Assembly: GCA_020725405.1 (NCBI GenBank)
Contig: DYFB01000093.1
Span: forward strand, 3,183-67,182
Source: Symbiobacterium sp.
GTDB lineage: Bacteria > Bacillota > Sulfobacillia > UBA995 > UBA9673
Direction of reading: 5' to 3'
DNA length: 64,000 bases
Shown one piece after another: positions 4,044 through 52,956 of this stretch. The notes beneath the pieces were generated by a model. The model was not told the origin of the DNA and made no database searches. It saw nothing but the letters and a program-made list of their open reading frames with translations. Both the position numbers and the translations under genes were made by a program. Position 1 is the stretch's first letter. Each line of letters begins with the position of its first letter.

Positions 4044-4072
4044 TCGCCCGTGGTAGTGGCGCAGCTAAGAAC

Positions 4073-4103
4073 GCGAGGAGGCACCCCCCGGGTGCCTCCT
4101 CGC
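4073..4103 (+). terminator. Perfect 13-bp GC-rich hairpin (gcgaggaggcacc / ccccg / ggtgcctcctcgc) after paralog B
   Basis: Perfect inverted repeat 30 nt after the stop. Weak T-run (tgcttga) follows. Confidence 0.5.
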
Positions 4104-4320
4104 TGCTTGACCAGGCCGGCATCAGCGTTGCGGGCCAGGGAAGCCCTCAGGGGCCGACGGCTGTTCGGCCGGGCGACGGTCCCCGCTTCACCTGCAGGTC
4201 TGCGCAACCGGCTAAGGAGTTCCCCTCCCGTCTCAGGTAGAATCTAGGAACTCCCTCCGTAGACTGGCTGTGAAGCCCTCCCCCGCGGGGAGGAACAACC
4301 AGTTGAAGGAGGTGAAAAGA

Positions 4321-6531: not shown

Positions 6532-6557
6532 AACGCCGGACGGGCCAGGAGGAGAGC

Positions 6558-6587
6558 GGCGGGAGGCACCTCCGCGCGCCTCCCGCC
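6558..6587 (+). terminator. GC-rich hairpin (ggcgggaggc / 10-nt loop / gcctcccgcc) after paralog C
   Basis: Perfect 10-bp inverted repeat 27 nt after the stop. Confidence 0.4.
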
Positions 6588-6709
6588 GTTCTCGCTCCGG
6601 CCGGCCCCCCCAATCTCTTCCGCCCGCCCGGGCGACATAACCCGGCAGGAGGCGCGCTCGCCGGGGCGAAAGAAGCTCAGTTACTAAGAGCTTCCGATCG
6701 ACCCTGGAG

Positions 6710-9139: not shown

Positions 9140-9195
9140 AGGGCCCGGCAGCGGCGGACCTGAGGTCGGCCGCGTAGGAAGGAGACAGGAGAACC

Positions 9196-10866: not shown

Positions 10867-10889
10867 GGCCCGAGCCGGGGGGAGGAACT

Positions 10890-12125: not shown

Positions 12126-12210
12126 CGGCTCGAACACTGCGGCAACCGGGGCCCGGCCGGGGCGCCCGGGCCGAGGCCGCCAGGCCAGGGGCTGGCAGGG
12201 GCTCTTCCTC

Positions 12211-15212: not shown

Positions 15213-16122
15213 ACAGCGCCGCGCCATCGTGACCGGCGGCAAGGGCTTCATCGGCTCGCACCTCGTCGACCGCCTCGAGACCGAGGGCTGGCGGGTCCTG
15301 GTCATCGATAACCGCCTCGGGGAGCCTGAAAACGACGTGACGTCCGTGGCGGCCCAGAGGGCCGCGGCGGCCTTCCGGCCCGATCTGCTGGTCCACGCCG
15401 CCGCCCAGACGAAGGTCCTCTCCAGCATCCTCGACCCGGCCCGGGACGCCGAGTCCAACGTGATCGGAACTATCCGCATGCTCGAGGCGGCCCGGGAGGC
15501 GGGGTCCACCCGGTTCATCTTTCTCTCCTCGGCCGCCGTCTACGGAAACCCGGTCCGCCTTCCGGTCGGCGAGGACCACCCGCGCGGCCCGCTCTGCCCC
15601 TACGGGCTAAGCAAGCTCGCGGCCATGACCTATGTCGACCACTACCGGGTCCACCGGAATCTTCCGGCCGTGACCCTCATTCCGGCTAACGTCTACGGAC
15701 CTCGCCAGGAGACCGGCACCGACGGAGCGGTGGTCAGCTCGTTCATGTCGAGCGTGATCCGTGGCGACCCGCTTCCGGTCGAGGGTGACGGCGGGCAGAC
15801 GCGCGACTTCGTCTACATCGGGGACCTCGTCGAGGCCGTTTGGCTCGCCTGGCTGCGCCTCGATGCCGACCCGACCGGCTTGGAGTCCTGCCTCAATATC
15901 GGCACGGGCCTGGAGACGTCCATCTCCGACCTCGCCGCTCTGGTCGAGGAAGTGGCCGGGCGGAAGACCGGGCGGGTCGAGCGGCCGGCCCGGCCCGGCG
16001 ACATCCGCCGAAGCTGTCTTGCCGGGGAACTCGCTCGCCGGTCCCTCGGCTGGTCGCCGCGCCTGGACCTGCGGGCCGGCCTCGAGCTCACGTTCAACTG
16101 GTGGTCGCACCTCTCGGCCTGA
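15202..16122 (+). CDS. NAD-dependent nucleotide-sugar epimerase/dehydratase (short-chain dehydrogenase/reductase fold)
   Basis: N-terminal Rossmann motif IVTGGKGFIGSHLVDRL. Has the YxxxK region. SD gggggag before the ATG, which overlaps the previous stop. Confidence 0.85.
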   Translation: MTSRQRRAIVTGGKGFIGSHLVDRLETEGWRVLVIDNRLGEPENDVTSVAAQRAAAAFRPDLLVHAAAQTKVLSSILDPARDAESNVIGTIRMLEAAREAGSTRFIFLSSAAVYGNPVRLPVGEDHPRGPLCPYGLSKLAAMTYVDHYRVHRNLPAVTLIPANVYGPRQETGTDGAVVSSFMSSVIRGDPLPVEGDGGQTRDFVYIGDLVEAVWLAWLRLDADPTGLESCLNIGTGLETSISDLAALVEEVAGRKTGRVERPARPGDIRRSCLAGELARRSLGWSPRLDLRAGLELTFNWWSHLSA

Positions 16123-16194: not shown

Positions 16195-17538
16195 ATGTTC
16201 TCACCGGCGCTCCGGCGCACGATCCTCGTCTCCGCCGTCATCGTCCTGTCCGCGGCCGTCCTCCTGGCGGGATGCCCTCTGCGCCTCGCCCGGCCCGGGG
16301 TCACCATCATCCTCTGGGATGGGCCCCGCTGGGCCGACGAGTCGGGCAATCGCTACCACTGGGTCCAGAGGAAGATAGCCGAGTTCGAGTCGAGGCACCC
16401 GTTCGTCGAGGTCGTCTTCGTCCCCGTCGAGTGGTGGAACCTACGAGAGATGCTCGATGCGGCCAAGGAGGCCGGGCGGCTCCCCGACCTTGCCCCCTTC
16501 GATCTCAGCGCCGGAGGCATCAGCCTGGCCGAAGTGGAGGAGGGGCTTCTCGAGCCGGTCGAAGGGGTCATCGCCCGGCCCGGCGACCTCTCCGAGCAGG
16601 CCCTGGCGGCCTACGCCTACGGCGACCACCTCTGGGGCTTCCCGCTGAGCATGACCGGTCACGCCCTCCTCCTGAACCTCGACCTCTTCGCCGAGCGCGG
16701 GGTCGAGCCGCCGCCCGACGGGCGGTGGACCTGGGCTGAGTTCACCGAGACCTGCCGCCGGCTGACCTTCGACCGGGACGGCGACAAGGCGACCGACGTC
16801 TGGGGCTTCGCGGCCTACGTCCTGCCGGGCTACTACGAGATCTGGCCGTTCCTCTACGCGGCCGGCGCCAGGCCGCTATCGAGCGACCTCGAGACCTTCA
16901 CCTTCGACACGGAGGCCTCGCTCTCGGCCCTTCGAAAGCTGGTGGACCTCGTCTTCGCCCACAAGGCGGCCCATCCGATGACCGGAAGCGCGGCTGTGCG
17001 CAGCGTCTTCCAGCTCTTCGCCGACGTCGAGCGCCAGGAAGTGGCCATCGAGCCCTGGTCAGCCTGGGCCATTGACTACCTGTACTCGGAGGAGGGGACC
17101 ATCAAGAACTTCGCCGTGGCCGACTACCCCTACGACGGGCCAGGGTCGCCGGTGGGCGTGGGAGGTACAGCCGGTTTTGTCGTCTTCCGCCAGGACGATG
17201 CCCACAAACGGAACCTTGTCGTGTCTCTCGCCAACTACCTGACCGACACCGTCGCCCAGTACGAGCTGGCCCGCGGCTACCGGGTCTTCCCCGCCCGGCG
17301 GAGCGCCCTCGACCTCGATCCCTTCGGCGGTGACCCGGTCTACCGCCGGGCCGCCGAAATCGCTTTCCGCTCCGAGAGCCTGCCCAGGCATCCCCGCTGG
17401 CCGGAGATTGAACGGGTCATCCAGAAGGAACTCCAGCTCGCCCTCCTCGGCATCAAGACTCCGGAGAAAGCTCTCGAGGACGCCCGGGCCGCAGTCGAGC
17501 CTCTTCTGCCCCTTCTCGACTCCCCGCCGGGGGACTAG
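16195..17538 (+). CDS. Extracellular solute-binding protein, ABC sugar-type (family 1), lipoprotein-like; no cognate permeases nearby
   Basis: Signal/lipobox ...LLAGCP. SBP_bac_1-like N-terminus ILWDGPRW...VEVVFVPVEWWNLREMLDAAKEAGRLPDLA. Confidence 0.75.
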   Translation: MFSPALRRTILVSAVIVLSAAVLLAGCPLRLARPGVTIILWDGPRWADESGNRYHWVQRKIAEFESRHPFVEVVFVPVEWWNLREMLDAAKEAGRLPDLAPFDLSAGGISLAEVEEGLLEPVEGVIARPGDLSEQALAAYAYGDHLWGFPLSMTGHALLLNLDLFAERGVEPPPDGRWTWAEFTETCRRLTFDRDGDKATDVWGFAAYVLPGYYEIWPFLYAAGARPLSSDLETFTFDTEASLSALRKLVDLVFAHKAAHPMTGSAAVRSVFQLFADVERQEVAIEPWSAWAIDYLYSEEGTIKNFAVADYPYDGPGSPVGVGGTAGFVVFRQDDAHKRNLVVSLANYLTDTVAQYELARGYRVFPARRSALDLDPFGGDPVYRRAAEIAFRSESLPRHPRWPEIERVIQKELQLALLGIKTPEKALEDARAAVEPLLPLLDSPPGD

Positions 17539-18980
17539 AGGTCGGGCATCTCCAGACCGCTCTCCGCCCGGAGGCGGCCGAGGACCGAGCTCACCTCGCC
17601 CTTGAGCCGTTCGAGGCCCTCCTCGGTCGTCGCTTCACACCTGACGACCAGGGCCGGTTGGGTGTTCGACGCCCTGACCAGCACCCAGCCCTCAGGGAAG
17701 AGGACCCGGGCGCCGTCCACGGCGATGACCTCCCGGCCAGCCCGGGTGAAATGCTCCCTGACCTTGTCGACGACGTCGAATTTCGTCTCGTCCGGGCAGT
17801 CAACCCGAATCTCGGGGGTCGAGAAGTAGCGGGGGCGGTCGGCGAGGAGAGTCGATAGCGGCTCGTCGGCGGAGGCGAGGATACGGAGAAGCCGGGCCCC
17901 GGCGTAGATGGCGTCGTCGAAGCCGTAGTACTCGTCGGCGAAGAAGAGGTGGCCGGACATCTCCCCGGCGAAGAGCGCTCCGAGCTCTCGCATCTTGGCC
18001 TTGATGAGGGAGTGGCCGGTGCGGTAGAAGAGCGGATCCCCGCCCAGGCGGCGGACCTCGTCGACCAGGGCCTGTGAACACTTGACCTCGATGATGGCCC
18101 TGGCCCCCGGGTGCCGGGGCAGGATCTCCCGCCAGAAGAGAATCATCAGAACATCGCCCCAGAGAATCTCGCCCGCGTCGTCGACGACCCCGAGCCGGTC
18201 GGCGTCGCCGTCGAAGGCCAGGCCGACGTCGGCCCGCCTCTCGCGGACCACTCGTCTCAGCTCAGACAGGTTCTCCGGCTTGACCGGGTCGGGCCAGTGT
18301 CCCGGGAAATCGGCGTCAAGCTCGCACCACAGGGGCACGATCTCACAGCCGAGGTCCCGGTAGAGGGCCGGGGCGACGACCGAGGCGGCGCCGCTGCCGC
18401 AATCGACGGCGACCCGCAGAGGCCGTTCGCGGCGGGCCAGGCGGACGCGCTCCCGGATGTCGGCGGCATAGTCCGGGAGGGGGTCCAGCCGGTGATGAGC
18501 CTCGATGTCCTCCGGCCCGCCGGCCCCGGCGTTTTCCGGGGAGGGCCCCCGCCTCTTCTCGAGAGCGGCCGCGCGCCGACCTATCTCCCGGATGTCCTCG
18601 CCGTAGAGTGTCCCTGGCCCGAAGGCGAGCTTGAACCCGTTATAGGCCGCCTCGTTGTGACTCCCCGTGACCATGACCCCGGGGTCGAGGTTGTAGCGGA
18701 CGCGGGCGAAGTAGAAGACGGGGGTAGGAACGACGCCGAGGTCGGTGACCTCCCAGCCGGACTCGCGGAAGCCGCGGGCGATCCCGGCGGCGAGCTCCGG
18801 CGAGGACCGCCGGTTGTCGCGCCCGAGGACCATCCGCCGGGGTGCCGTGGCCGGTAGTCGCTCCTCGAGCCACCCGGCGAAGGCCCGGGCGATGAGCCGG
18901 GCCGTACCGCTCGTGAGCTCCGTTCCAGCCCTGCCTCTGATGTCGTACTCCCGGAAGATTCCGGGAGAGATCTCGGTCAC
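17535..18980 (-). CDS. Phosphomannomutase/phosphoglucomutase
   Basis: Active-site loop VMVTGSHNEAAYNGFKL. Overall PGM/PMM four-domain colinearity. I chose the start at the GTG supported by SD ggggagg (VTEISPGIFREYDIRG). The longer ORF-track N-terminus lacks an SD. Confidence 0.9.
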   Translation of the reverse strand: MTEISPGIFREYDIRGRAGTELTSGTARLIARAFAGWLEERLPATAPRRMVLGRDNRRSSPELAAGIARGFRESGWEVTDLGVVPTPVFYFARVRYNLDPGVMVTGSHNEAAYNGFKLAFGPGTLYGEDIREIGRRAAALEKRRGPSPENAGAGGPEDIEAHHRLDPLPDYAADIRERVRLARRERPLRVAVDCGSGAASVVAPALYRDLGCEIVPLWCELDADFPGHWPDPVKPENLSELRRVVRERRADVGLAFDGDADRLGVVDDAGEILWGDVLMILFWREILPRHPGARAIIEVKCSQALVDEVRRLGGDPLFYRTGHSLIKAKMRELGALFAGEMSGHLFFADEYYGFDDAIYAGARLLRILASADEPLSTLLADRPRYFSTPEIRVDCPDETKFDVVDKVREHFTRAGREVIAVDGARVLFPEGWVLVRASNTQPALVVRCEATTEEGLERLKGEVSSVLGRLRAESGLEMPDL

Positions 18981-19139
18981 GGGCGTTGACCTCCCCTGTG
19001 GGCCGGCCGGGAGGACGGCCCGCGCCGCGCACGGCCGGGCCGGACCTGACCCGCGCCTATAATGCCCCCTGACCTGCGGCGAGAACACGGGCCCTGCCCG
19101 GACCCGGGTCCGCACCACCCGGCCGTCGGCCTGAAGGAA

Positions 19140-20057
19140 TTAGGGGCGGGGTGTGTCGGAGGAGACGGCCGCCTGGCGCAGGCTCTCGTCCGATGCTTCG
19201 ACTAGGCCGGCGAGATAGGCCGCAAAAGCCGGCCGGATGTCCGGGCGCTTGAGGGCGAACTCCACGTTTGCCTGGAGATAGCCGACCTTATCGCCCACGT
19301 CGTAGCGCCGGCCCTGGAGTTCGCAGGCGAAAACCGGAACCGACGTGTTGAGAACCCTCAGGGCGTCGGTGAGCTGGATCTCTCCGTTCCTCCCGGGTGG
19401 CAGATCAATCAGGACATCGAAAATTGCGGCGTGAAGGAGATACCGGCCGACGATGGCCCAGAGTGACGGGGCCTCGTCGGCCTTCGGCTTCTCGACCAGG
19501 TCAAGAACGCGGAAAAGCCCCTTGGCGCTGGGGCCGGGTTTGACCGAGCCGTAGCGCTCTATCTCCTCCCGGGAGACCTTCCTCACCGCCACGAAGTTGC
19601 CCTCGAACTCGCTTGCCAGGCGCATCATCTGGCCAATGGCCGGGGGATCGGCGTCGAAGATCTCATCTCCTAAAAGGACGGCGAAGGGCTCGCCACCTAC
19701 GTGACGCCGTGCCTGCAGGATGGCGTGGCCCAGGCCGAGAGGCTCCTTCTGCCGGATGAAGTGTATGTCAGCGAGGTCGTGAATGCGACGCAGGGTCCCC
19801 AGGAGGTCCGGCCGCTTCGTGCGCCCGAGAAACTGCTCGAGCTCCAGCGACCGGTCAAAGTGGTCCTCGATAGCTCTCTTGCCGCGTCCGGTAATAATGA
19901 GGATATCCTCTATCCCAGCGGAAACGGCCTCTTCCACCACGAGCTGGATGATCGGAATGTCGACAATGGGAAGCATCTCCTTGGGCTGGGCCTTGGTCGC
20001 CGGCAGAAAGCGTGTGCCCAGGCCCGCCGCCGGAATGACGGCCTTGCGGAGGCGCAC
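19140..20057 (-). CDS. galU: UTP-glucose-1-phosphate uridylyltransferase
   Basis: MRLRKAVIPAAGLGTRFLPATKAQPKEMLPIVDIPIIQLVVEEA is a textbook GalU N-terminus. Confidence 0.9.
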   Translation of the reverse strand: MRLRKAVIPAAGLGTRFLPATKAQPKEMLPIVDIPIIQLVVEEAVSAGIEDILIITGRGKRAIEDHFDRSLELEQFLGRTKRPDLLGTLRRIHDLADIHFIRQKEPLGLGHAILQARRHVGGEPFAVLLGDEIFDADPPAIGQMMRLASEFEGNFVAVRKVSREEIERYGSVKPGPSAKGLFRVLDLVEKPKADEAPSLWAIVGRYLLHAAIFDVLIDLPPGRNGEIQLTDALRVLNTSVPVFACELQGRRYDVGDKVGYLQANVEFALKRPDIRPAFAAYLAGLVEASDESLRQAAVSSDTPRP

Positions 20058-29240: not shown

Positions 29241-30605
29241 GTGCGGCGCCTCTGGAGAAGAGCCGTACCGGGCCTCCTGCGGCCGGCGGCCGTGCTCGGC
29301 CTCGTCGTCGTCTTCGTGCTTCTCGCGGCCTTTGGCGTCCGCGGGTGCCATCCGCCCCGCGACCCGGCCGATTCCGGGAGCGCCTACACCCCTCCCGAGG
29401 GTCCGAGCGGGCCGACCTCCTTCCGCGGGGGTCCGGGACCCGAATCGGAGCTCGATCCCCTGAACATCTCCGTGGTGATGACCGACCGCATCTTCCAGGA
29501 GACCTACGAGGGGACGGTCGTCGCCCGGCTCGCGCCGGACGGGCGCTCCTTTATCCTGAGCAGCACGTTCCAGCGCGGCGGCCGGAAGTACTACGGGTTC
29601 CAGGTCTGCGACCTCCGGGGGGAAGTGCTCTGGGAGCACGTCTTCCCTGTCTCCGCCTACCGGCGGGCTGATGCTTTCTACCTCGCGGGCGGGCGGTACA
29701 TCGGAGCCGTAGCCTGCGACTACGACCAGGAAGGTGAAGTGCAGATACGGGCGGCCGACGGCCAGTTGGTTTTCACCCGGCCGATAGTCGGTTGGACGAT
29801 GCCGGTCATGTCCGCCCGGGGGTCGTGGCTGGCTCTCTTCAACCAGCAGCGAAACACCCTCAGCGTGTTCGGGCCGCCGAGATTCGAAACCGCCTGGAGC
29901 CTGAAGCTGGGGGAGGGGGCCCACGGCTTCTTCCTCGAGGACGGTCCCCGGTTCCTCCTCATCGAGAGCGGTCGGGCCAGGCTCTTCGGCGCCGGCGGCC
30001 AGGTTCTGTGGTCGGTGGCCATCCCCGGGGGTGGCTACTGGCGGGCCCTGGCCTCGCCGGACGGCCGGTATGTGGCGGCCACGACCGAGGACCCCGACAG
30101 CGCCGTCTACCTCTACTCGGCGGAGGACGGGAGCCTGGTGTGGAGCCAGTCCCTGGTCACGGGGGGCCACAAGAGCCTCGCCTTCTCACCCGACGGGGCT
30201 TCTCTCGTCGTCTACGACATCGGCCAGCACGCGGCCATCTACATGCTCGACGCCGCCGGCGGGAACATCGTCTGGCGCTTCTACCTCACGGCCTACGGCC
30301 GGACCGGCTCGATGATAACCGTTAAGGACCTGCAGTTCACTCCGGACGGCCGCTACATCGTCGCCGACATTGTCGAGTCGACCCTTGACGACCGCACCTA
30401 CGTGATGTACCATTATCTCCTCGCCCTGGCTCCGGACGGGCACGCCCTGTGGATAACCCCGCTGGGCTCGCAGGTGGACGTGGAGATGAACGCGGTCGCC
30501 GGGCTCCTCCTCATCATGACGAACAACGTCACCGACGGCTACGGGCTTATCCGGAACACCCTGACCCTGGTGACCTTCCTCGAGGACCTCACCTCGCCGC
30601 AGTGA
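29241..30605 (+). CDS. Membrane-anchored PQQ/BamB-like beta-propeller repeat protein
   Basis: N-terminal TM VLGLVVVFVLLAAF. Repeated blades with G-x-hydrophobic-W cores (GEVLWEHVF, GQLVFTRPI, GQVLWSVAI, GSLVWSQSL, GNIVWRFYL, GHALWITPL). Confidence 0.7.
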   Translation: MRRLWRRAVPGLLRPAAVLGLVVVFVLLAAFGVRGCHPPRDPADSGSAYTPPEGPSGPTSFRGGPGPESELDPLNISVVMTDRIFQETYEGTVVARLAPDGRSFILSSTFQRGGRKYYGFQVCDLRGEVLWEHVFPVSAYRRADAFYLAGGRYIGAVACDYDQEGEVQIRAADGQLVFTRPIVGWTMPVMSARGSWLALFNQQRNTLSVFGPPRFETAWSLKLGEGAHGFFLEDGPRFLLIESGRARLFGAGGQVLWSVAIPGGGYWRALASPDGRYVAATTEDPDSAVYLYSAEDGSLVWSQSLVTGGHKSLAFSPDGASLVVYDIGQHAAIYMLDAAGGNIVWRFYLTAYGRTGSMITVKDLQFTPDGRYIVADIVESTLDDRTYVMYHYLLALAPDGHALWITPLGSQVDVEMNAVAGLLLIMTNNVTDGYGLIRNTLTLVTFLEDLTSPQ

Positions 30606-30784: not shown

Positions 30785-32773
30785 GTGCTTGAAGGAGCCA
30801 TGACCACCTCCCGCCGCCGGGGCCGCATCCTTCCCCCGTCGACCGTCCTCCAGAACCGCTACCGCATCCTCCGCCTGCACGACCAGGGCGGCTCAGCAAC
30901 CGTGTACCTCGCCGAGCGTCTCGGGGTGGATGAGAGCGTGCCCCTGGCCGTCAAGGAGCTCAACCCGGACGCGTTCAGCCTGGCCGAGTTCAAGAACGAA
31001 GTCAACGTCCTTTACTCGCTGAACCACCCCAACCTCCCCAAGGTCTATGACTTCTTCGAGCAGGACGGGAAGCACTACCTCGTCATGGACTTCGTGCGGG
31101 GTAAGACCCTCAAGCAGATGGTTCTCGAGGGCGGCGCTCTCGGCGAGGACGAGGCCCTGGACTACGCCCTCCAGATATGCGACATCATGACCTACCTCCA
31201 CCGGCGGGCCGAGCGCCGGATCATCCATCGAGACCTCAAGCCGTCGAACCTGATGCTGACTCACGCCGGCCAGGTGAAGCTCCTCGACTTCGGCATCGCC
31301 CGGGTGCCCGACAGCCGGCTCCCGGGCAATCTGCTCCACGCCTACACCGAGGACTACGCCTCCCCCGAGCAGAAGGAGAACCGGCCGACCGACCAGAGGA
31401 GCGATATCTACAGCTTCGGGGTGACCCTCCGCAGCCTTCTCGAGGGAAGGCTGCCGGGCGTCGATGAGGAGGCGCCCGCGGAGGACCTCTCCCCGCCCCG
31501 GCGCAGGCCCAGGGTGTCGCGGGAGATGAGGCGGATACTCGGACGCTGTCTCCGACCCGACCCCGCCGAGCGCTATCAGAGCTTTGAGGAGCTCGCCCGC
31601 GACCTCCGCTCCTACCGGCAGGCCCGGCGGACCAGAACGGCCCGCCGCCTCGGCTTCGCCGCCGCCGCTCTCGGGGTCGCCAGCCTTCTCTTCCTGGCGA
31701 AGGTCCTCTTCGGCCCCTCCCTCTACCCCATCCTGGGGCCCGAGCGCCTGCAGGTCGGGGTCGGGACGGCCCTGCAGGTCGGCCTCCCGGCCGGATGGGA
31801 AGGCAGCCTCGACGGTATCGTCTGGGACATCATCGACACCCAGGCTCCGGGCCAACCGCGCGAGGTCCAGAGGGGCCGGTACTGTTCATTCGTCTCGACC
31901 GATCTCGGCGTGTTCCAGGTCCAGGCCTACCTCGAAACGAACGGCCGCCGCCGGCTCCTGTCCACGGTGAAGAGGATAGAGGTCTACCCGGCCCTGAGCG
32001 TGCCGCACGAGGTTCTGGTGGGGCAGCGCTTCACTCTCTCCTCGCCCGGGGCGACGGCGGGGGGCGGCCGGGAGTACACCTGGCAGTGGACCATCCGCGG
32101 CCCGATTGAGGGCGCCGACGCCGCCTCGGCCCCGGTGGTGCTCCAGAAGTCCACGACCGAGCCGCGGCTGCGGGCGGAGATGGCGGTGGAGGGGACCTAC
32201 GCGGTGTGGCTGAGCGTCAACGTCAAGGCTCCCGGGGGCCTGGAAGTCTCGACCGCCGCGCCGGCGAAGACGCTGGCCGCGGTCACCCGGCTCGTCGTCG
32301 ACCCCAGCCGCGTCATCAGCCGCAACCCGAGCTTCGAGGAGCAGTACGGCGGCCAGCCGACCGACTGGGTCCTCGTCTATACCGCGCAGCTCACCTACGA
32401 CAAGACGATTGGCCGAACCGGCTCACGCTCCATCCGTTTCACCCCGAAGGCGGGTTCGCCCACTCCCTACGCCGTCCAGCTCCTCCCCCTCGAAGACGGG
32501 CGCTCCTACCGCGCTACCGTCTGGGTCAGGGGCGAGAACGTGGCCGACGGCGGGCGCATCTCCCTCGAGGCCCGCTTCCGGTCGCCCGTCGACGAGACCT
32601 ACGTTCTCAGCGACGAGACGGTGACCGTCGACTGGAGCGGGACTTTCGACTGGCGGCAGATGGCCGTCCACTTCTTCGTTCCCTCCGGAAGCGGCGTCAC
32701 CCTCGAGCTGTACCTGAGGTTCAGCGGCAGCGGGTCCGTCTGGTTCGACGACTGCGTGGTCGAGAAGCTCTGA
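30785..32773 (+). CDS. Transmembrane Hanks-type Ser/Thr protein kinase with an extracellular Ig-like plus carbohydrate-binding-module-like (CBM4/9-type) sensor region
   Basis: Kinase subdomains LAVKEL (Lys), HRDLKPSNLML, DFGIA, ASPEQ. Single TM GFAAAALGVASLLFLAKVLF. C-terminal domain SRNPSFEEQYGGQPTDWVLV...GSRSIRFTP...YRATVWVRGEN...GSVWFDDCVV resembles CBM_4_9 sugar-binding modules. Confidence 0.85.
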   Translation: MLEGAMTTSRRRGRILPPSTVLQNRYRILRLHDQGGSATVYLAERLGVDESVPLAVKELNPDAFSLAEFKNEVNVLYSLNHPNLPKVYDFFEQDGKHYLVMDFVRGKTLKQMVLEGGALGEDEALDYALQICDIMTYLHRRAERRIIHRDLKPSNLMLTHAGQVKLLDFGIARVPDSRLPGNLLHAYTEDYASPEQKENRPTDQRSDIYSFGVTLRSLLEGRLPGVDEEAPAEDLSPPRRRPRVSREMRRILGRCLRPDPAERYQSFEELARDLRSYRQARRTRTARRLGFAAAALGVASLLFLAKVLFGPSLYPILGPERLQVGVGTALQVGLPAGWEGSLDGIVWDIIDTQAPGQPREVQRGRYCSFVSTDLGVFQVQAYLETNGRRRLLSTVKRIEVYPALSVPHEVLVGQRFTLSSPGATAGGGREYTWQWTIRGPIEGADAASAPVVLQKSTTEPRLRAEMAVEGTYAVWLSVNVKAPGGLEVSTAAPAKTLAAVTRLVVDPSRVISRNPSFEEQYGGQPTDWVLVYTAQLTYDKTIGRTGSRSIRFTPKAGSPTPYAVQLLPLEDGRSYRATVWVRGENVADGGRISLEARFRSPVDETYVLSDETVTVDWSGTFDWRQMAVHFFVPSGSGVTLELYLRFSGSGSVWFDDCVVEKL

Positions 32774-32787
32774 GCTGACGACACGAT

Positions 32788-35700
32788 ATGAGCCATTCGG
32801 CAAAGGAAGGCCCCCCCCGCGGCGCGAAGAATACGGCTCACCTCTGGAGGAGCTCCGCCTTGCTCTCCGACCTCGGCCGCACAGCGAGAAGGCTCGGCTC
32901 GGCGAGACGGGTGGTCCGGGCGGCCCTGGCCGCTCTGGTCGCCGCCGGTCTCCTCCTCCCCTGCCTGCCCGCACCCCGACCGCTCCTGGCGGCGCCGCCG
33001 GCGACACCGCCCGGTGCGGCCTCGACGTCGTACGCCGATATCGACGGCCACTGGGCGCGCCCGGAGATAGAGGCCCTGCGGGCCCGTGGAGCCCTCCCCC
33101 CCTCGGGGGAGTTTTTCCGGCCCGACGAGCCGGTGACCCGCGGCGAATTCCTGGCCGACCTCGTCCGGGCCCTGGGTTACGGTCCCGAAGCGGCTGAGCT
33201 CGGCGATCACCCGCCGCCGTTCAGCGACGCCGGGGCCGGCGAGACCATCACTGGGCACCTGAGCGCCGGGGTCGAGCACGGTCTCGTCCGCGGCTACCCT
33301 GACGGGACCTTCCGGGCCGACTGGGAGATAACCCGGGCCGAGATCTCGACCATCCTCGTCCGCCTGAGCGGCCTTGCGCCGGACGCTCCCGGACTGGCCG
33401 CCCTGCCCTTTACCGACCGTTCCGACGTTCCGTCTTGGGCGGCGGGCTACATCGCCGTGGCCTACCAGCGGGGCATGGTCCGGGGGTACCCGGACGGCTC
33501 CTTCCGGCCTGAGAGCGGGGCTACCCGAGCCGAGGCCGCCTGCCTCATCTACCGCGCCGTCCGGCTGAGCGGCCGGCTGTTCGACCTTACCGGCCTGGTG
33601 CGCGAGGGCCCCGGAAGCGGGGACAGTCTCGCCGTGGACCTCTGGCCCGCGGGAACGCCCGGAAGCTACGTCGAAGAGGACGGGACTCTTGTCGTCCCCC
33701 TTCCGGATTCCCTCGGCCCCTCCCCGCCCGGGCCGACCGTCCGCGTCAGGATTTCATCGTCTTGCGTGACCTACCGCGATGGTCGACCGGCCGTCCTCTC
33801 CGCGGTGCGCCCGTTCGACGAGGTCGCCCTCATCCTCGACGAGACCGGGGCCGTCGCCTTCATCGAGGCCCTGCGCCCTGACGGTGTCGGTCTGGTCACC
33901 GGAGTCGGGCCCGGGCTCGCCTGGGTCGCTCTCACTTCCCTGGGCGGTGACGGGCCGGAGCGGGTCTTCGCCATCCTGCCCTGGGCGCCGGTCCTCCCTG
34001 CGGGGGCGGGGGGGCGTGCGCCGGTCCTGGGTGACCTGGTCTACTTCATCCTCGACAGCGCGAGCGGCGCCATTCGGGCTCTGGCCCTCATCGGTCCGGT
34101 CGCCGGGGCTTCCGCCGGCCCGGCCGCCGGATTCTCCGCCGACCCGGCCGCCGGGGCGTTCACCGGCCCGGCCGCCGGATTCTCCGCCGACCCGGCCGCC
34201 GGGGCGTTCACCGGCCCGGCCGCGACGACCGGCCCGGACGTCACCACGAGCGAGGTCATCGACCCGGCGGCCGCCCCGCCCCCGCTTCTGACGCCCGCGG
34301 CGGCCATGGCCCTGAGCGCCGCGGCCGTGAACGCCCCCGCGCTCAGGACCCTTACCGGGGCGAGCGGGCGGGGAGTAACCATCGCCATCGTGGACACCGG
34401 AGTGGACGTGAGTCACCCCGACCTCGCTATGACCAGCGCGTGGGAGCGGAAGATCGTCGACTGGCGCGACTTCAGCGGTGAGGGGGACGTGTCGACGACG
34501 AGGATATCGACGGCCGACGCGGTCGGGATTATCCAGACGGACCTCGGGCCGGCCAAGGTCACCGGCATCGTCTCCCAGAGCGGCTTCTACCACTCCGGGG
34601 TCTTCTCCGAAAGCCAGCTTCAACCGGGTGGGCCTCTCGGCGGGGACCTCGACCGGAACGGGCGGACCGGTGACCGCTTCCTGGTGGTCGCCGTCGACCG
34701 ACGCCTCTCCGGCGTCTACGACACCGTCTACGTGGACACCAACCGCAATCTCGACCTCACGGACGAGGTCCCCCTGCGCCCCTACCGCGATACGGCCCTC
34801 GTGGCCTGGTTCGGCGACGCGGGCCGACCGCGGTCCGAACGCTGCTCCTTCGTCCTGGCTGACATCCGCTCCGACGGCAACCGCGTGACCCTCGGCTTCG
34901 ACGGGAACGGTCACGGGACGCACGTCGCCGCCATCTCTTCGGCCTACGGCTCCTACCGCGGCGGGCTCGACGGTCTCGCCCCGGGCACCCGCGTCATGGC
35001 CCTGAAGGCCCTCCGCTCCTCAGGCGACGGGACCTGGGGGGACATCGTCCGGGCCGTCAGCTACGCGGCCCAGAAGGGGGCCGAGATCATCGTCCTCAGC
35101 GTGGCCAACCTCTCGCACGGGGGAGACCTATCCGCGGAGACGGCGGCCATCGCCGCCGTGGCCGCGCGCTACGGCGTGCTGATCGTCTCGGCCGCTGGCA
35201 ACACGGGGCCGGGCGTGGGCACCGCCCGGGGGCTCGGCGCGTCCCCCGGCATTCTTACCGTCGGGGCCGCGCTGGACCAGGCTATGTGGCAGGCATACTT
35301 CGGCTACGCCGTGGAGGGGCGGACCGTCTGGCCGTTCAGCGCCGTGGGGCCGCGCCCCGACCTTTCCGGAGGCCCGGATGTCCTCGCTCCGGGCTGCGCC
35401 CTCTCGGCCGCGCCACTGTGGCTCGAGCCTCCCGGCTACGTCCAGTCCGAGGGGACGAGCATGGCCGCGCCCCATGTCGCCGGAGTGGCCGCCCTGCTCC
35501 TCGAGGCCCTGCGGCAGACCGGCCGGCCTGCTCCGGTGAGTCTTGTGAGTCTTGTCGAGGAGGCCATCCTGGCCGGAGCCCGGCCTCTGGAGGGCTACTC
35601 CTTCGTCGAGCAGGGGCGGGGGGCGGTCGACGCTCTCCGCTCCTGGGAGTGGCTGGCCGGACCGGCGGCGGCGACCGGGAGCGGTGCGGCGCCGCGCCCC

Positions 35701-37440: not shown

Positions 37441-37823
37441 TGCCGCAGGCTGTCGCAACTCGCAAGGAGAGGATACTTGTCGTCGACGACGAAGAGAGCA
37501 TGCGGGAGCTGCTCCTGGCCCTGTTCCGCAAGAACGGGTACCAGACCGCCGCCGCCCGGAACGCCGCTGAGGCCCTCGCCCTGGCCGCGGAGATGGACCC
37601 GACCGTGGCCGTCATCGACGGTCACCTGCCCGGCGGAGGGGGCGTCGCTTTCATCCGGAAGTTCCGGGGTAGCTTTCCCGAGATACGGACCGTCTTGATG
37701 ACCGCCTACGACAGTCCGGAGCTGCTCGAGGCTGCTTCCCCGGCCGGGGCCGGGGCGTGGGTCCGGAAACCCTTCGACCTGCTTGAGCTACTCGACAAAG
37801 TGGAGAGCCTCTGCCGGATCTGA
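37440..37823 (+). CDS. Stand-alone response-regulator receiver domain (CheY-like), translationally coupled to the subtilase
   Basis: RILVVDDEESMRELL...TVAVIDGHLPG (acceptor Asp)...VLMTAY...WVRKPF. All receiver motifs are intact. ATG overlaps the subtilase stop as TGATG. No output domain. Confidence 0.85.
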   Translation: MPQAVATRKERILVVDDEESMRELLLALFRKNGYQTAAARNAAEALALAAEMDPTVAVIDGHLPGGGGVAFIRKFRGSFPEIRTVLMTAYDSPELLEAASPAGAGAWVRKPFDLLELLDKVESLCRI

Positions 37824-37863
37824 CCGCTCCCGAACCTTGTCCCGCACGGAGGTAAGACCCAGA

Positions 37864-40089
37864 GTGGAAGGCTTCATAGCCGCCGCCTGTCAGACAGCCG
37901 CCACGGCCGAGCCGGCCGAGGCCGTCCTCAAGGCCGCCGCGGCCGGGGCCCGCCTGGTGGTCCTTCCGGCCCGGGTTCTGGAGAGGTCCTGGAGCCCGCG
38001 CTCCGGCTCTCGCCCGGCCGGGCCCTCCCGGCCCGGCCCGGGTCGGCGGTCGGAGCCCCGACCCCTACCTGGGCGCGAAGAGCTCCTCTCCCGCGCGGCC
38101 GACCTCGCCCGGCGCGCCGGGTGCTATCTTGCCCCCGGCACGGTGGTCGTTCCGCCGTCCGGCGGAGGCCCGGCTTCCCCGGTGGCCTGGCTGTTCTCCC
38201 CGACGGGCGAGCTCCTGGGTGAGCAGGTCGCTACGCACCTGACCCGGGAGGAGGAGGCTGCCGGGGCGGTCCCGGCTGACGAGCTCAGGGTCTTCGACGT
38301 CGACGGGGTCGGCGTGGGTCTCCTCGTCGGCCTCGACGTCTGGGTGCCGGAGGTCAGCCGCATTCTCGCCCTGGAAGGCGCCGTCGTCCTCCTCGCCCAC
38401 CTCGCCCTGCCCGCGCCCTACTCCGAGGCCCGGCAGCTCGCGGGAGTCTGGCAGGAGGTGCAGCAGAACCAGGTCTTCGGCGTCGAGGCCTGCCTCGTGG
38501 GGTCCCGGGACGGGACCACGTACGCCGGTCGCAGCGCCGTGACCGCCCCCTGCGAGATGACTCCCGGCGAGAGCGGCTTCGTGGTCCGGGCTCCCTCCCC
38601 GGAAACCGCGGTGACCCTGCTCGGGGCCATCGACCTCGCGGCCAGGCGGCGGGTCATCGAGAGTTACGACATCTTCGCCGAGCTCAACGTCGGTCTCTAC
38701 CGGCGGGTCTTCCCACAGGTCTACCTGGCCGCCCGCGAGGCCGGAGCCGCCGGGCCCCCCACCGAGCTGGCCGCCGGGCCTCCCACCGAGCCGACCGCCG
38801 GGCCTCCCACCGAGCCGGCCGGCAGGGACCGGGGCGCAGCGGGACAGCCTCCGGGCGACCGGCGTCCGAGGAGGCGTCCGGGGAAAGGACCGGAGAACCT
38901 CGGGTTCAAGGAGCGGCTCTTCCGGCGCTATCTCACCTTCGTCTCCCGTCCGCGCGTAGTCCGGCGAGCGGTCGCCGCTCTCCGGCTCACGCCTCACCCG
39001 AAGCGGCGGAAGAAAGGCCGGTGGTGGACGGAGCCCGGCCTCGGACGGCCCCGCGCGACCTCCAGGGGGGGCGCCGCTGCCGGCGAGCCCCGGCCGCCGC
39101 GGACGGTGCGGGTCGCGGCCATCCAGCTGGAGTCCTTCTACGCGAGGAACGTCACGGACTACGTCCTCCGTCTCGGAGAACGGTTCCGCGAGGCCGTCGC
39201 CGAGGGGGCCGACCTCGTTGCTTTCCCCGAGTACGTTACCCAACCCCTCATCGGGCTCATCCCCGGGGTCGCGCCGCTGGAGGGGGCGGAGAAGGGCCGC
39301 GACCGGAGCCAGGCCAACCCGGGACCGGACAAGGCCGCGGTGGCCCTGGCCGACGTCACCCGGTTCATGGAGCCCATCTTGAGGAACGTCTACTTCACCT
39401 TGTTCGCGGCCCTGGCCGCCGCGGCGCGGGTCTACGTTCTGGCCGGCGCGACCCCGATGCCCGGGGCCGGCGGCAAGGTCTACAACGTGAGCCACCTCTT
39501 CGGACCGGACGGAAGGCTCATCGGAGCCCAGCCGAAGGTGCACCTCTTCCCCCGGGAGCGGACGGAGGGGCTCTCGCCGGGGGAGGACCTCACGGTCTTC
39601 GAGACGGCCGTCGGGCGGCTGAGCCTGCCGGTGTGCATGGACGCCACCTACTTCGAGACCTACCGACTGGCCGCTCTCCTCGGAGCCGAGATGCTCGGCG
39701 CCCCCGTAGCCAACGCCGAGCCCTACAACTGCTGGAAGCTCCTTCGCGGAGCCTGGCCGCGGGTCCAGGAGACCCCGGTCTACGCCGTGCAGTCGACCCT
39801 CGTCGGCGAGTTCCTCGGCCAGGAGCTCAGCGGGAGGGCGGCCGTCTTCGCCCCGCACGAGCTCACTCCGGCGGGCGACGGGGTCCTGGCTTCGTCGGCC
39901 CAGCCCACCGGCCCCGGGCTGGCCGTGGCCGACCTCGATCTTGACGCTCTCGCCCGCTTCCGCGAGGAGCACCCGGTCTTCCCGCGGCTCAACCTCGCCC
40001 TCATCCGGCGCTACCTGCCCCGGATCTACGAGGACTTCGCCCGGCGGCGGGCGGCTTCCGACCAGGGCCAAGAGGAGTCCCGCCCGTGA
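37864..40089 (+). CDS. Tandem carbon-nitrogen hydrolase (nitrilase-superfamily) protein. N-terminal domain catalytically degenerate, C-terminal domain intact
   Basis: Domain 2: VRVAAIQLE...LVAFPEY (Glu)...SLPVCMDATYFE (Cys). Domain 1 aligns (FIAAACQ...ARLVVLP...VGLLVGLDVWVPEV) but has Gly where the Cys should be. Low-complexity linker. Start chosen at the GTG after SD ggagg. The ORF-track TTG at 37783 overlaps the receiver gene. Confidence 0.7.
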   Translation: MEGFIAAACQTAATAEPAEAVLKAAAAGARLVVLPARVLERSWSPRSGSRPAGPSRPGPGRRSEPRPLPGREELLSRAADLARRAGCYLAPGTVVVPPSGGGPASPVAWLFSPTGELLGEQVATHLTREEEAAGAVPADELRVFDVDGVGVGLLVGLDVWVPEVSRILALEGAVVLLAHLALPAPYSEARQLAGVWQEVQQNQVFGVEACLVGSRDGTTYAGRSAVTAPCEMTPGESGFVVRAPSPETAVTLLGAIDLAARRRVIESYDIFAELNVGLYRRVFPQVYLAAREAGAAGPPTELAAGPPTEPTAGPPTEPAGRDRGAAGQPPGDRRPRRRPGKGPENLGFKERLFRRYLTFVSRPRVVRRAVAALRLTPHPKRRKKGRWWTEPGLGRPRATSRGGAAAGEPRPPRTVRVAAIQLESFYARNVTDYVLRLGERFREAVAEGADLVAFPEYVTQPLIGLIPGVAPLEGAEKGRDRSQANPGPDKAAVALADVTRFMEPILRNVYFTLFAALAAAARVYVLAGATPMPGAGGKVYNVSHLFGPDGRLIGAQPKVHLFPRERTEGLSPGEDLTVFETAVGRLSLPVCMDATYFETYRLAALLGAEMLGAPVANAEPYNCWKLLRGAWPRVQETPVYAVQSTLVGEFLGQELSGRAAVFAPHELTPAGDGVLASSAQPTGPGLAVADLDLDALARFREEHPVFPRLNLALIRRYLPRIYEDFARRRAASDQGQEESRP
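38749..38820 (+). repeat. 24-bp in-frame tandem repeat x3 in the CN-hydrolase interdomain linker (encodes AGPPTE[LP][AT])
   Basis: gccgggccYcccaccgagcYgRcc x3, read directly from the sequence. Confidence 0.85.
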
Positions 40090-42092
40090 AGCGGCTGACG
40101 GTCCCTGAGGAGATGGACTTCGCCCGCCGCCTCTACCCGACCGGGAACCATTTCGTCTCACTCCCCGTTGTCGAGGCCGCCGATGCTTCCGTGGACCGGG
40201 TGGGCGTCCTCCATATGGGAGCGGCCGGCCTCGTGGAGTTCGGCGGGCCCCAGGCCGAGCTCGGGGCCGAGACCCTCCCGGCCCTGGAGCCGCTTATCAG
40301 ACCCTTCATCCTGATCGGCGGTCGGACGTCCGGTCCGGGCCGCGGCGCCACGGCGAGCCCATCCTGGCGGCGCCTCTGGGATTGGGTCCCGGCCTTTGAG
40401 TGGCGTGACGAGCCCAGCGGACTTGTCCTCAAGGGGACGCTGCTTGCCCCTGTCTGGGCGGCCCGCGAGGGTCTCCAGTCGCACAAGGGGTTCGTCTACG
40501 TCCTGGAGGTCTCCGGCCCGGCCGCCGGCGGCGCGCCGCCTGAGGACCTCCGACTCGGCCTCACCCTGACGTGGGGGGACCTTCTGGAGACCGTCTACAC
40601 CTCAAGACGCCTCCCCGCCGCTCTGAGCGTCAGGCGGGACCGCTGGACCGGCGGTCCGGTGCTCGAACCCCGCGCGGGCTCAGGGGCCGGCCCGGCGGCC
40701 CTGGCTGTCTCCTTCTCCGTCCCGGGCGAGGACGTGGAGTGGACGGCCCGGACCGACGAGGCCGGAGTCATCCGGGTGGAGATGACCGCGCGCCCGCGGG
40801 GAGGAGCGGCAGCCTTCTACTTCGGCCTCAACCGGGAGGGGGACGGGGCCCGGACGGTTGCCGTCGACCTCGCCCGCCACGGCTGGGAGAGCCTTCTCCG
40901 GGCCACGGGGGCCGCCCTCGCTCCCCTGCGGCGGCCGGTGGCCGGGGAGGACCGCTTGGGAGCCGCCGGCGAAGAATCGAGAGTCCTGGGCGGCCGGCTG
41001 AACCTGAACCTCCTCTTTAACTACTTCTTCGCCGCCGGGCGAACCATCGATACCGAGGAGCTCGTCCTGGTCACCAGCCGGAGCCCGCTGTACTACGTCA
41101 GCGCGGCCTTCTGGGCAAGGGACGCCCTGCTCTGGAGCCTCCCCGGCCTCCTTCTTGTCGACCCCGGCCTGGCCGAGGAAGCTCTGGGCGAGGCCTTCGG
41201 CCGCTACTTCCGTCACGCCGGCATCCACTCGCTCTACATGGACGGAACCCTCCTCTACCCGGGATTCGAGCTGGACGAGCTCGCCGCCTACCCCATCGCC
41301 CTCTGGCGCTACGTCCGGTCGACGGGGGACGTCGCCATCCTGGGACGGCGGGGTCTCGGGCCGAAGCTTCGGCGGATTCTCGACCTCATGGAGGAACAGG
41401 CCCATCCGGACCCGAATATCCACTTGTACCGGACGTTCCTCCTGCCCTCGGACGACCCGGCCACTCATCCCTACGTGACCTACGACAACGTCATGGCCTG
41501 GCGCGCCTTGCTCTGCGCGGCCGACCTTCTGGAGTGGGCGGAGGGCCGGGACGGGGCGGAGCTGAGAGACCGGGCGGAGAGGGTCAGGGCTTCCGTCTAC
41601 CGCCACCTTGTGGTCGACGGCCCGGGAGGCCCGGTCTTCGCTTGGTCGGCCGACCTGGAGGGCGGGGTGGAGCTGGGCGACGAGCCCCCGGGAAGCCTGG
41701 AGCTCCTGCCGTACTACGGCTTCTGCTCGCGGGAGGATGAGGTCTGGCGCCGGACGGTCGGGTGGATCCACTCGCGGGAGAACCCCTACCGCTACCTCGA
41801 CGTCCCGTTCCCGGGGGTGGGGTGCCCGCACTCGCCCCATCCGTTCGTCATGAGCTTATTCAACGCTCTCCTGGGGGGTCTTCCCGAGAGGATCGCCGAG
41901 GCCCGGTCGGTGCTGCTCAAGGCTCCGCTGGATACCGGGCTCGCCTGCGAGGCCTTCGACCGCCGGACCGGGGAGGTTAAGACGGGAGCGGCCTTCGCCA
42001 CGTGCGCGGGGTTCCTGGCCTACGCCATGCACCGGGTTTTCGGGCGGCCGGCGCATGGAGAATACAGGAATGGTCCCGGGTTTGTGGAATAG
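40086..42092 (+). CDS. Hypothetical 668-aa protein, putative six-hairpin (alpha/alpha)6 glycosidase-like; family not assignable from sequence alone
   Basis: Central block LNLNLLFNYFFAAGRTIDTEELVLVTSRSPLYYVSAAFWARDALLWSLPGLLLVDPGLAEEALGEAF is reminiscent of GH63/GH125/GH15-type barrels. The GTG start overlaps the upstream stop. Confidence 0.4.
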   Translation: MKRLTVPEEMDFARRLYPTGNHFVSLPVVEAADASVDRVGVLHMGAAGLVEFGGPQAELGAETLPALEPLIRPFILIGGRTSGPGRGATASPSWRRLWDWVPAFEWRDEPSGLVLKGTLLAPVWAAREGLQSHKGFVYVLEVSGPAAGGAPPEDLRLGLTLTWGDLLETVYTSRRLPAALSVRRDRWTGGPVLEPRAGSGAGPAALAVSFSVPGEDVEWTARTDEAGVIRVEMTARPRGGAAAFYFGLNREGDGARTVAVDLARHGWESLLRATGAALAPLRRPVAGEDRLGAAGEESRVLGGRLNLNLLFNYFFAAGRTIDTEELVLVTSRSPLYYVSAAFWARDALLWSLPGLLLVDPGLAEEALGEAFGRYFRHAGIHSLYMDGTLLYPGFELDELAAYPIALWRYVRSTGDVAILGRRGLGPKLRRILDLMEEQAHPDPNIHLYRTFLLPSDDPATHPYVTYDNVMAWRALLCAADLLEWAEGRDGAELRDRAERVRASVYRHLVVDGPGGPVFAWSADLEGGVELGDEPPGSLELLPYYGFCSREDEVWRRTVGWIHSRENPYRYLDVPFPGVGCPHSPHPFVMSLFNALLGGLPERIAEARSVLLKAPLDTGLACEAFDRRTGEVKTGAAFATCAGFLAYAMHRVFGRPAHGEYRNGPGFVE

Positions 42093-52826: not shown

Positions 52827-52956
52827 CTCCGGAGCGTGGACACAATAGGCTGAAGAGGAAACCCGAGCCAGGATGACCGGGCGCCGGGCGGATGACCAGC
52901 AACGCCTGAAGACGGGGGAGCGCGCCCCGAGACGCGCGGCCCGAGAGCGGTACCCG

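Follow-up and report, generated by a model that had tools for sequence, protein, structure and literature searches.

What does a bacterial receptor kinase sense when its outer region ends in a carbohydrate-binding module (CBM) and carries no PASTA repeats? The question is raised by a 64,000-nt stretch of contig DYFB01000093.1 from Symbiobacterium sp., referred to in full as the window, in which an open reading frame (ORF) at 30785-32773 on the forward strand encodes 662 aa, its span matching the listed ORF exactly. The protein is confirmed to be a membrane-spanning bacterial Hanks-type serine/threonine kinase, with an ectodomain of two immunoglobulin (Ig)-like stalk domains and a CBM-type head, without PASTA. 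The architecture given in the original prediction, which was made from the letters of the window and a list of ORFs, is thereby borne out, including all of the motif strings quoted (W528, GG522-523, SIRF549-552, WVRGEN580-585 and VWFDDCV652-658). We favor, with moderate confidence, a receptor-type kinase composed of a cytoplasmic catalytic domain, one transmembrane helix and a PKD-PKD-CBM rod, the last of these bearing the glycan-sensing head of an envelope module. The head probably senses a conserved cell-envelope or environmental glycan, with no specificity for what the upstream sugar-synthesis genes produce.

Identity of the head and architecture of the kinase

The C-terminal domain was assigned from both sequence relatives and predicted structure. 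Pfam CBM_4_9 (PF02018) matches 15 of 21 orthologs at E<=0.1, with a best E of 1.3e-7. An exhaustive phmmer search with the ectodomain uncovered 520 relatives at E<=1e-3, 43 of them at E<=1e-10; among the 150 of these 520 matches listed, most cover the last ~150 residues only, often in multiple copies within large multidomain proteins. When ten distant relatives were scanned, seven exceeded the Pfam CBM_4_9 cutoff (phmmer links to the scanned relatives have E values of 1e-25 to 1e-10), and some also bear heparinase II/III, pectate-lyase-type beta-helix, CelD_N or PG_binding_1 modules. A word-indexed search with the ectodomain alone returned nothing, a limitation of the index; the full-length query and the exhaustive search both recover the orthologs. 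Against solved structures, a profile of the C-terminal domain matches residues 177-319 of the central-fiber protein gp20 of mycobacteriophage Douge (E 4.8e-7, 23% identity) and, at E 3.7e-4, the N-terminal domain of the Thermogutta endoglucanase 8ag9; CBM16 is matched marginally (E 0.24-0.28).

The AlphaFold2 (AF2) model of this domain alone has a pLDDT of 91 and a pTM of 0.87, and a beta-sandwich spans residues ~510-661 of the full-length model. The top Foldseek matches in the PDB are CBM61, CBM70, CBM16, CBM22, CBM4 and Douge gp20, all at a probability of 1.00 with TM-scores of 0.57-0.75; E values for the top solved CBMs run from 4.5e-8 to 1e-5, and TM-scores against ligand-bound type-B CBMs from 0.66 to 0.75. 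Structure prediction, which had been proposed as the check on a CBM-like fold, thus came out in its favor. Against viral models, the head matches minor tail, tail fiber and receptor-binding proteins of Mycobacterium, Gordonia, Bacillus, Lactobacillus and Klebsiella phages with TM-scores of up to 0.80. By modeled fold and transitive homology, then, the head is a member of the CBM_4_9 superfamily, with no specific CAZy family (CBM16, 22, 61 or 4) assignable. The ortholog matches, the phmmer relatives, the scanned relatives above the cutoff and the Foldseek matches each carry the assignment far past what chance would give.

Conservation was compared between 27 kinase-linked CBM domains and 136 generic relatives. 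Hallmarks of the fold are common to both groups (N514, F517, E518, W528, Y575, W580, W623, G650, W653 and D655), and a second set, R576, R599, S600, Y606, Q625, E641 and Y643, is invariant or nearly so in the kinase family alone. E641 is invariant and Y643 is found in 85% of the kinase family, versus 14% and 34%, respectively, in the generic relatives. In a marginal profile alignment, the CBM16-1 strand QLALW aligns with the family strand NLEVY, which sets Q121 and W125 of CBM16-1 against T/N639 and Y643, with E641 between them, and places all three family residues on the equivalent face. The presumed ligand contacts of CBM16-1 are W20, Q81, Q93, Q121 and W125; PDB titles name a Q121E mutant of CBM16-1 bound to mannopentaose/cellopentaose, and a 3-residue numbering offset is consistent with these presumed contacts. 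The alignment suggests, short of proof, that a ligand cleft is retained in the CBMs of the kinase family.

The catalytic domain is matched by Pfam Pkinase (PF00069) over residues 34-266 (E 2e-40; 139.3 bits against a cutoff of 31.7) and adopts a kinase fold in the AF2 model; when the full-length model is compared with viral structures, the matches are dominated by viral kinases. Across 21 orthologs, the catalytic residues K57 (AVK), HRD148-150 (in HRDLKPSN, 148-155), N155, DFG168-170 and SPE193-195 are invariant, as are T188 and E189 of the activation segment in the ortholog alignment. The Gly-rich loop reads DQGGSATV versus the canonical GxGxxG, with the central Gly positions alone retained, and G35, G36 and A38 are invariant in the family. 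The listed start is GTG 30785. All 20 aligned full-length orthologs begin where M6 lies in the kinase, which makes ATG 30800 the probable true start and 657 aa the probable length; this ATG is preceded by GAAGGAG. A protein 97% identical to the kinase (P0001) has 657 aa and begins MTTS, and the version in the public record of the contig seems to be the 662-aa one (P0284).

A single-pass topology is predicted from three features: 1) a single hydrophobic helix with a Kyte-Doolittle peak of 2.18; 2) an Arg-rich stretch, RQARRTRTARR, which precedes it on the cytoplasmic side; and 3) one continuous long helix at residues 267-308 of the AF2 model. The region beyond the membrane comprises 351 aa (residues 312-662), where the original estimate of an extracellular part had been about 330. 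No PASTA match (PF03793) is found in the kinase at E<=1, nor in any of the 21 orthologs at E<=0.1. Between membrane and head, AF2 places two small all-beta domains of ~85-100 aa, with strands at 321-401 (pLDDT ~85-90) and 409-500; mean pLDDT is 80 for the full-length model and 85-96 for most of the ectodomain. Pfam PKD (PF00801) matches 11 of 21 orthologs (best E 1.6e-6) but has no match at E<=0.1 in the kinase itself, and a profile of the mid-region of the family matches the PKD domains of AAVR/KIAA0319L among solved structures (E 7.8e-5). In one relative (P0121), the PKD match coincides with the region covered by the profile of the second domain (Ig2). The first (Ig1) occurs in the kinase family only, as judged from phmmer relatives and domain profiles; by hhalign, its profile weakly resembles that of Ig2 and shows a PKD-like pattern (E 9.7e-4, probability 22%). 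Mean pairwise identity is 0.68 for the kinase domain, 0.52 for the CBM and 0.38 for Ig2; the CBM is the best-conserved outer domain, and conservation of the Ig-like domains is poor. A minor tail protein of Microbacterium phage Terij (A0A6B9LCH1), at rank 47 of the full-length fold search, aligns over 401 columns and may share the multidomain Ig and CBM layout of the ectodomain beyond the CBM alone.

Full-length orthologs are 38-97% identical and fall into ~20 clusters at 90% identity, with source names, where given, of Bacillota, Firmicutes and unclassified ‘bacterium’ metagenome-assembled genomes (MAGs). Nine representatives with the kinase-Ig-Ig-CBM architecture are present in a 50%-identity library. 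A scan of GTDB genomes with the single protein gave one full-length relative, from an uncultured Firmicutes MAG (60% identity), and nine other matches restricted to the kinase domain. Comparison of Rho proteins delimits a tight uncultured clade at an identity of at least 91%, the next relatives reaching at most 77% and cultured Firmicutes ~72%. The gene encodes a lineage-specific extra kinase, and the clade is most likely one of uncultured Bacillota with high GC. Searches of the literature for a Hanks kinase that has a CBM as its sensor came back empty, and two surveys of bacterial Ser/Thr kinase domain architectures mention no CBM, lectin or PKD sensors. Outside the window, an unrelated protein of 1,456 aa (P0251) starts with a zf-HC2 domain, a zinc finger of the anti-sigma type, and continues with Pkinase, four BTRD1 repeats and two copies of a CBM_4_9-like module. 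It is an independent kinase-CBM fusion, and the coupling of CBMs to Hanks kinases has arisen more than once; this recurrence suggests that the theme extends past the present clade.

Table 1. Coordinates of the kinase, its domains and its neighbors in the window.
Feature	Position	Strand	Basis
Receptor-type Hanks Ser/Thr kinase gene	30785..32773	+	ORF; probable start 30800 by ortholog alignment
Cytoplasmic kinase catalytic domain (aa 20-285)	30842..31639	+	Pkinase match, catalytic motifs, AF2 kinase fold
Single transmembrane helix (aa ~289-311)	31649..31717	+	Kyte-Doolittle hydropathy, AF2 helix
Ig-like beta-sandwich 1 (Ig1, aa ~315-402), membrane-proximal stalk	31727..31990	+	AF2 strands; weak profile similarity to Ig2
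Ig-like PKD-type beta-sandwich 2 (Ig2, aa ~403-503)	31991..32293	+	PKD matches in orthologs, AAVR profile match, AF2 strands
CenC/CBM_4_9-superfamily beta-jelly-roll (aa 506-662), presumed sensor head	32300..32770	+	Pfam, phmmer, AF2, Foldseek
Beta-propeller protein, N-terminal membrane anchor, 454 aa, PQQ_2/PD40-like	29241..30605	+	PQQ_2 E 4.8e-10; hydrophobic segment 7-39
SLH-anchored subtilase, 1,550 aa	32788..37440	+	SLH x3 E 8.6e-30, Peptidase_S8 E 1.5e-35; motifs DTG536, HGT709, GTS889
Receiver-only response regulator, 127 aa	37440..37823	+	Response_reg E 1e-20; canonical DD...D...T...K pattern
Protein with two CN_hydrolase stretches (768 aa, 37783-40089) and GH125-like protein (668 aa, 40086-42092)	37783..42092	+	Pfam; co-oriented, 4-nt overlap

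The conserved gene cluster around the kinase

To compare gene neighborhoods, we searched seven ortholog loci by tblastn with the proteins of the window. The kinase is shown to sit in a conserved, co-oriented, operon-like cluster with a membrane-anchored beta-propeller protein and an SLH-anchored S8 protease. A propeller homolog is located beside or near the kinase in six of the six loci with enough flank, and an SLH/S8 protease homolog downstream of it in five of five, with separate SLH and S8 genes in distant loci. This partnership persists down to 38% kinase identity. The stop codon of the kinase gene is 15 nt from the start of the protease gene, the stop codon of which is overlapped by the ATG of the response regulator. 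No convincing terminator was detected between the kinase, protease and regulator genes, and the promoter and terminator scans gave counts not above those of shuffled sequence.

Other neighbors are conserved less widely. Homologs of the response regulator are found downstream of the protease in three of five loci (L001, L002 and L004), and no histidine kinase is present among the neighboring genes scanned around this receiver-only regulator. The pair of genes for the CN-hydrolase and GH125-like proteins is also present in three of five loci (L001-L003). In L003 the two are fused into a single protein of 973 aa (16501-19422), which implies a functional link between them; their membership in the kinase module is uncertain. 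The CN-hydrolase protein of the window further contains a low-complexity insert of three GPPTE units (aa 324-344), and in the SLH-subtilase the linker from the SLH region to the subtilase domain holds a 16-aa Ala/Gly/Pro-rich unit that is perfectly duplicated in tandem, GPAAGFSADPAAGAFT x2, at window positions 34117-34212 (protease aa 444-475).

Window positions 9196-10866, ~20 kb upstream of the kinase, encode a CtpB-like S41 protease that also has a PDZ and a PG_binding_1 domain. In distant loci, homologs of this protease are found at 8511-9914 of L004 and 515-2122 of L005, directly upstream of the kinase, and at 3396-4817 of L003, three genes upstream. These positions suggest an ancestral order of S41 protease, kinase, propeller and S8 protease, later split by inserted genes.

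The window as a whole is one long cell-envelope region, with genes for SLH proteins, Wzy_C proteins, the CtpB-like S41 protease, a priming sugar transferase, GT1/GT4 enzymes and GDP-mannose dehydratase, TagO-, MnaA- and MurA-type genes, SpoIID and M23 peptidases. At 1863-9139, genes for two large SLH paralogs (726 and 753 aa), in which Pfam finds nothing further, precede the gene for an 809-aa O-antigen-ligase-like Wzy_C protein whose C terminus carries TPR repeats; no Pfam family matches the product of 20-1609. Further downstream, a 604-aa ORF at 52873-54687 fuses a Sua5/YrdC (threonylcarbamoyl-AMP synthase) domain to a low-molecular-weight phosphotyrosine-phosphatase domain.

Candidate ligands of the head

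We infer glycan binding by the CBM head from its sequence relatives and modeled fold. The nearest solved relative, the N-terminal domain (NTD) of Douge gp20 (residues 165-321), binds the surface of M. smegmatis, as well as fragments of lipoarabinomannan/arabinomannan (LAM/AM) and alpha-glucan on glycan arrays (PMC13033339). A polysaccharide ligand, as was originally suggested, is plausible. In the mechanism proposed here, the Ig-like domains would act as a spacer that holds the head off the membrane, in the wall or periplasmic zone, where it would bind glycan via a candidate cleft that includes E641 and Y643 on the penultimate strand and possibly R576, R599, S600, Y606 and Q625. The ligand would be a conserved polymer: a peptidoglycan-associated or secondary cell-wall polymer, such as serves to anchor SLH proteins, or else a polysaccharide common in the environment. 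A multivalent polymer, once bound, would cluster or dimerize the kinase, allowing trans-autophosphorylation of the activation segment at the invariant T188 and then phosphorylation of cytoplasmic targets, for which the co-operonic receiver protein is one candidate. The output would adjust envelope or SLH-protein processing. A more specific version, which we offer as speculation and consider rather improbable, is that of a cell-wall-integrity receptor: the head would bind the conserved secondary wall polymer (or peptidoglycan-linked glycan) that anchors SLH proteins and, with the propeller, the S8 protease and the receiver-only regulator, would form a surveillance circuit which tunes surface-layer processing when the wall glycan is exposed, depleted or damaged.

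Several points weigh against a glycan-sensing kinase. In the kinase itself, CBM_4_9 matches residues 513-642 at E 0.026 and 15.3 bits, below the cutoff of 25.9. Likeness to the characterized CAZy CBM families is structural only, at an identity of 13-18% (~15%) and a sequence E of ~0.25. In the marginal alignment with CBM16, contact Q81 falls on the variable position 597 and Q93 on the hydrophobic L608. Glycan binding is demonstrated for the homologous Douge domain only, and CBM-fold modules are able to bind proteins instead of sugars. On the cytoplasmic side, the Gly-rich loop is degenerate and catalytic competence is assumed; the link between kinase and response regulator is one of adjacency in three of five loci, and neither a PP2C phosphatase nor an identified substrate is found nearby. 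The lineage is uncultured, and the function of the kinase is read from sequence and models.

The glycan might also come from outside the cell as a nutrient, with the CBM detecting exogenous plant, algal or microbial polysaccharide and the kinase turning on utilization genes, in the manner of RsgI in cellulolytic Clostridia (PMC10328401, PMC4711584). The nearest non-kinase relatives of the module that were scanned include heparinase-, pectate-lyase- and CelD-type proteins, and the match to endoglucanase 8ag9 points the same way, as do the GH125-like gene, which is co-oriented with the kinase gene in one series, and an upstream gene for a solute-binding protein of the sugar type. The conserved neighbors of the kinase, however, are envelope proteins (the propeller, the SLH-S8 protease and, in distant loci, the S41/CtpB-like protease) and do not make up a CAZyme regulon or a set of transporters. 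Neither the GH125-like nor the CN-hydrolase protein has a strong hydrophobic signal segment, and none of the conserved genes of the cluster encodes a secreted glycoside hydrolase. We consider nutrient sensing unlikely.

Sensing of a protein is, in our judgment, rather improbable. The jelly-roll would here be a protein-interaction module that docks the membrane-anchored propeller, an S-layer protein or the SLH/S8 protease, and what the kinase reports on would be that partner and not a sugar. Adjacency of kinase and propeller is the most conserved feature of the locus, the propeller and the ectodomain face the same compartment, and fused propellers of the PQQ type serve as sensors in many other bacterial kinases (P0038, P0052, P0055 and P0068). 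Foldseek matches also include jelly-rolls that are not lectins, such as a MAM domain and Cry toxin domains. Yet the best relatives of the head in both sequence and structure are carbohydrate binders, one of them experimentally tested, and its family-specific residues (Arg, Glu, Gln, Tyr and Ser) are typical of sugar-binding sites. The propeller of the window has repeat-level similarity only to the kinase-fused PQQ propellers (best E 0.004); the gene-fusion argument is weak and is not used as evidence.

The original prediction had gone a step further and suggested that, with a glycan locus upstream, the ligand may be the surface glycan of the organism itself. Under this proposal, the CBM would sense the strain-specific product of the upstream GT/Wzy/GDP-fucose-type genes and feed back on the polymer. 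A block of GT1, GT1, Wzy, GDP-mannose dehydratase and epimerase genes does lie on the same contig at 20224-27181, 3.6 kb upstream of the kinase, with further glycan genes at 6710-16122, and a polysaccharide ligand would suit the CBM fold. By tblastn, however, homologs of GT1, Wzy, GDP-mannose dehydratase (GMD) and the GDP-fucose-synthase-like protein (GFS) are found in none of the seven ortholog loci, and in the two closest long loci (L001 and L002) a polysaccharide deacetylase and a GH3 enzyme occupy the slot between PGM and AdoHcyase. The GC content of the block is 0.642, against ~0.715 for the genes on either side. Because it is absent from every ortholog locus and lower in GC, the block looks like a variable surface-glycan island, laterally acquired and inserted between PGM/NTP-transferase and AdoHcyase. 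Two unrelated genes, for AdoHcyase and a small exporter, and the propeller gene separate it from the kinase. The candidate ligand residues of the CBM are invariant across these genomes while the glycan genes at the locus vary, which argues for a ligand conserved across the clade. Sensing of the strain-specific glycan is therefore quite improbable, and that part of the original prediction is not upheld.

An anti-phage role, as a PD-T4-6- or MADS-like kinase whose outer domain resembles phage receptor-binding modules and detects phage, is rejected as highly improbable. The PADLOC models for mad6 and PD-T4-6 do match the kinase (E 1e-58 to 1e-23), as in part does NCBIfam MADS6 (NF047741), but every such match is restricted to the generic catalytic domain (residues ~15-280), and MADS6 reaches 141.6 where its cutoff asks for 460. 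Defense models find nothing in the propeller, CN-hydrolase or GH125-like neighbors, and housekeeping and envelope genes keep their place around the kinase down to 38% identity, which a defense island would not be expected to do. One PADLOC PD-T4-6 kinase model has a receiver-like C-terminal region, which the receiver-only regulator matches weakly (E 1.7e-4).

Comparison with known receptor kinases and glycan sensors

In overall plan, the kinase resembles the PASTA kinases (PknB/PrkC/StkP/Stk1, NF033483), which likewise combine an N-terminal cytoplasmic Hanks kinase and a single transmembrane helix with a rod of small repeated outer domains, and in which the rod senses cell-wall-derived glycan or peptide. 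PASTA kinases are usually found in a phosphatase-containing operon. The present protein differs in its outer PKD-PKD-CBM region and in its context of propeller and SLH/S8 protease, and it scores 194.8 bits on NF033483 against a cutoff of 450, with model positions 3-277 of 563, the kinase part, aligned to residues 20-286. The premise of the original prediction that Gram-positive receptor kinases typically sense through PASTA repeats was overstated, as it holds for PrkC/PknB orthologs only. To our knowledge, few bacterial Hanks kinase sensor domains besides PASTA have a known ligand.

The head shares the beta-jelly-roll of the CenC/CBM_4_9 type-B CBMs (CBM4, 16, 22 and 61) together with their hallmarks, an N-terminal N..FE motif with a Trp, a central Trp and a C-terminal G.W.D; unlike those modules, it is carried on a kinase and not an enzyme, and has an invariant residue set of its own. 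The Douge gp20 NTD (PDB 8ZDO/8ZDP) is the best solved match in sequence, with a shared ending of GTVWFDDC.V.K and a TM-score of 0.74 in structure. The Douge module mediates adsorption from within a trimeric fiber, whereas the kinase head is placed at the tip of a signaling receptor whose gene belongs to a conserved locus of the chromosome. Phages of Gram-positive bacteria and Actinobacteria supply many more structural matches among their minor tail proteins, with TM-scores of up to 0.80.

A functional analog within the Bacillota is provided by the RsgI anti-sigma-I factors of Clostridium thermocellum, single-pass proteins in which an outer CBM senses polysaccharide and signals across the membrane (PMC10328401, PMC4711584). 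RsgI differs in its output, which is that of an anti-sigma factor acting through proteolysis and not a kinase, and scans with Pfam and NCBIfam detected neither an RsgI nor any other anti-sigma domain in the kinase protein. Receptor kinases with diverse ectodomains are already known, as is CBM-tipped transmembrane signaling in Bacillota via RsgI. In this kinase family, the sensor head comes from a glycan-binding superfamily that is well understood, the candidate ligand residues are few and named, and the gene partners are conserved; because the residues are listed and the gene partnership is conserved, both ligand and pathway are directly testable.

Should the ligand prove to be a wall polymer, the family would provide a second, non-PASTA means of coupling the state of wall glycan to Ser/Thr phosphorylation in bacteria, and would link S-layer/SLH biology to kinase signaling. 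In plants, the lectin-, LysM-, WAK- and malectin-type receptor-like kinases belong to the same kinase superfamily and pair one transmembrane helix with a glycan-binding ectodomain, and some of them monitor their own wall. They differ from the bacterial kinase in being eukaryotic, with unrelated ectodomain folds and independent origins. A wall-integrity receptor of the kind outlined above would, if true, be a bacterial counterpart of these plant wall-sensing kinases and a second solution to glycan sensing beside PASTA.

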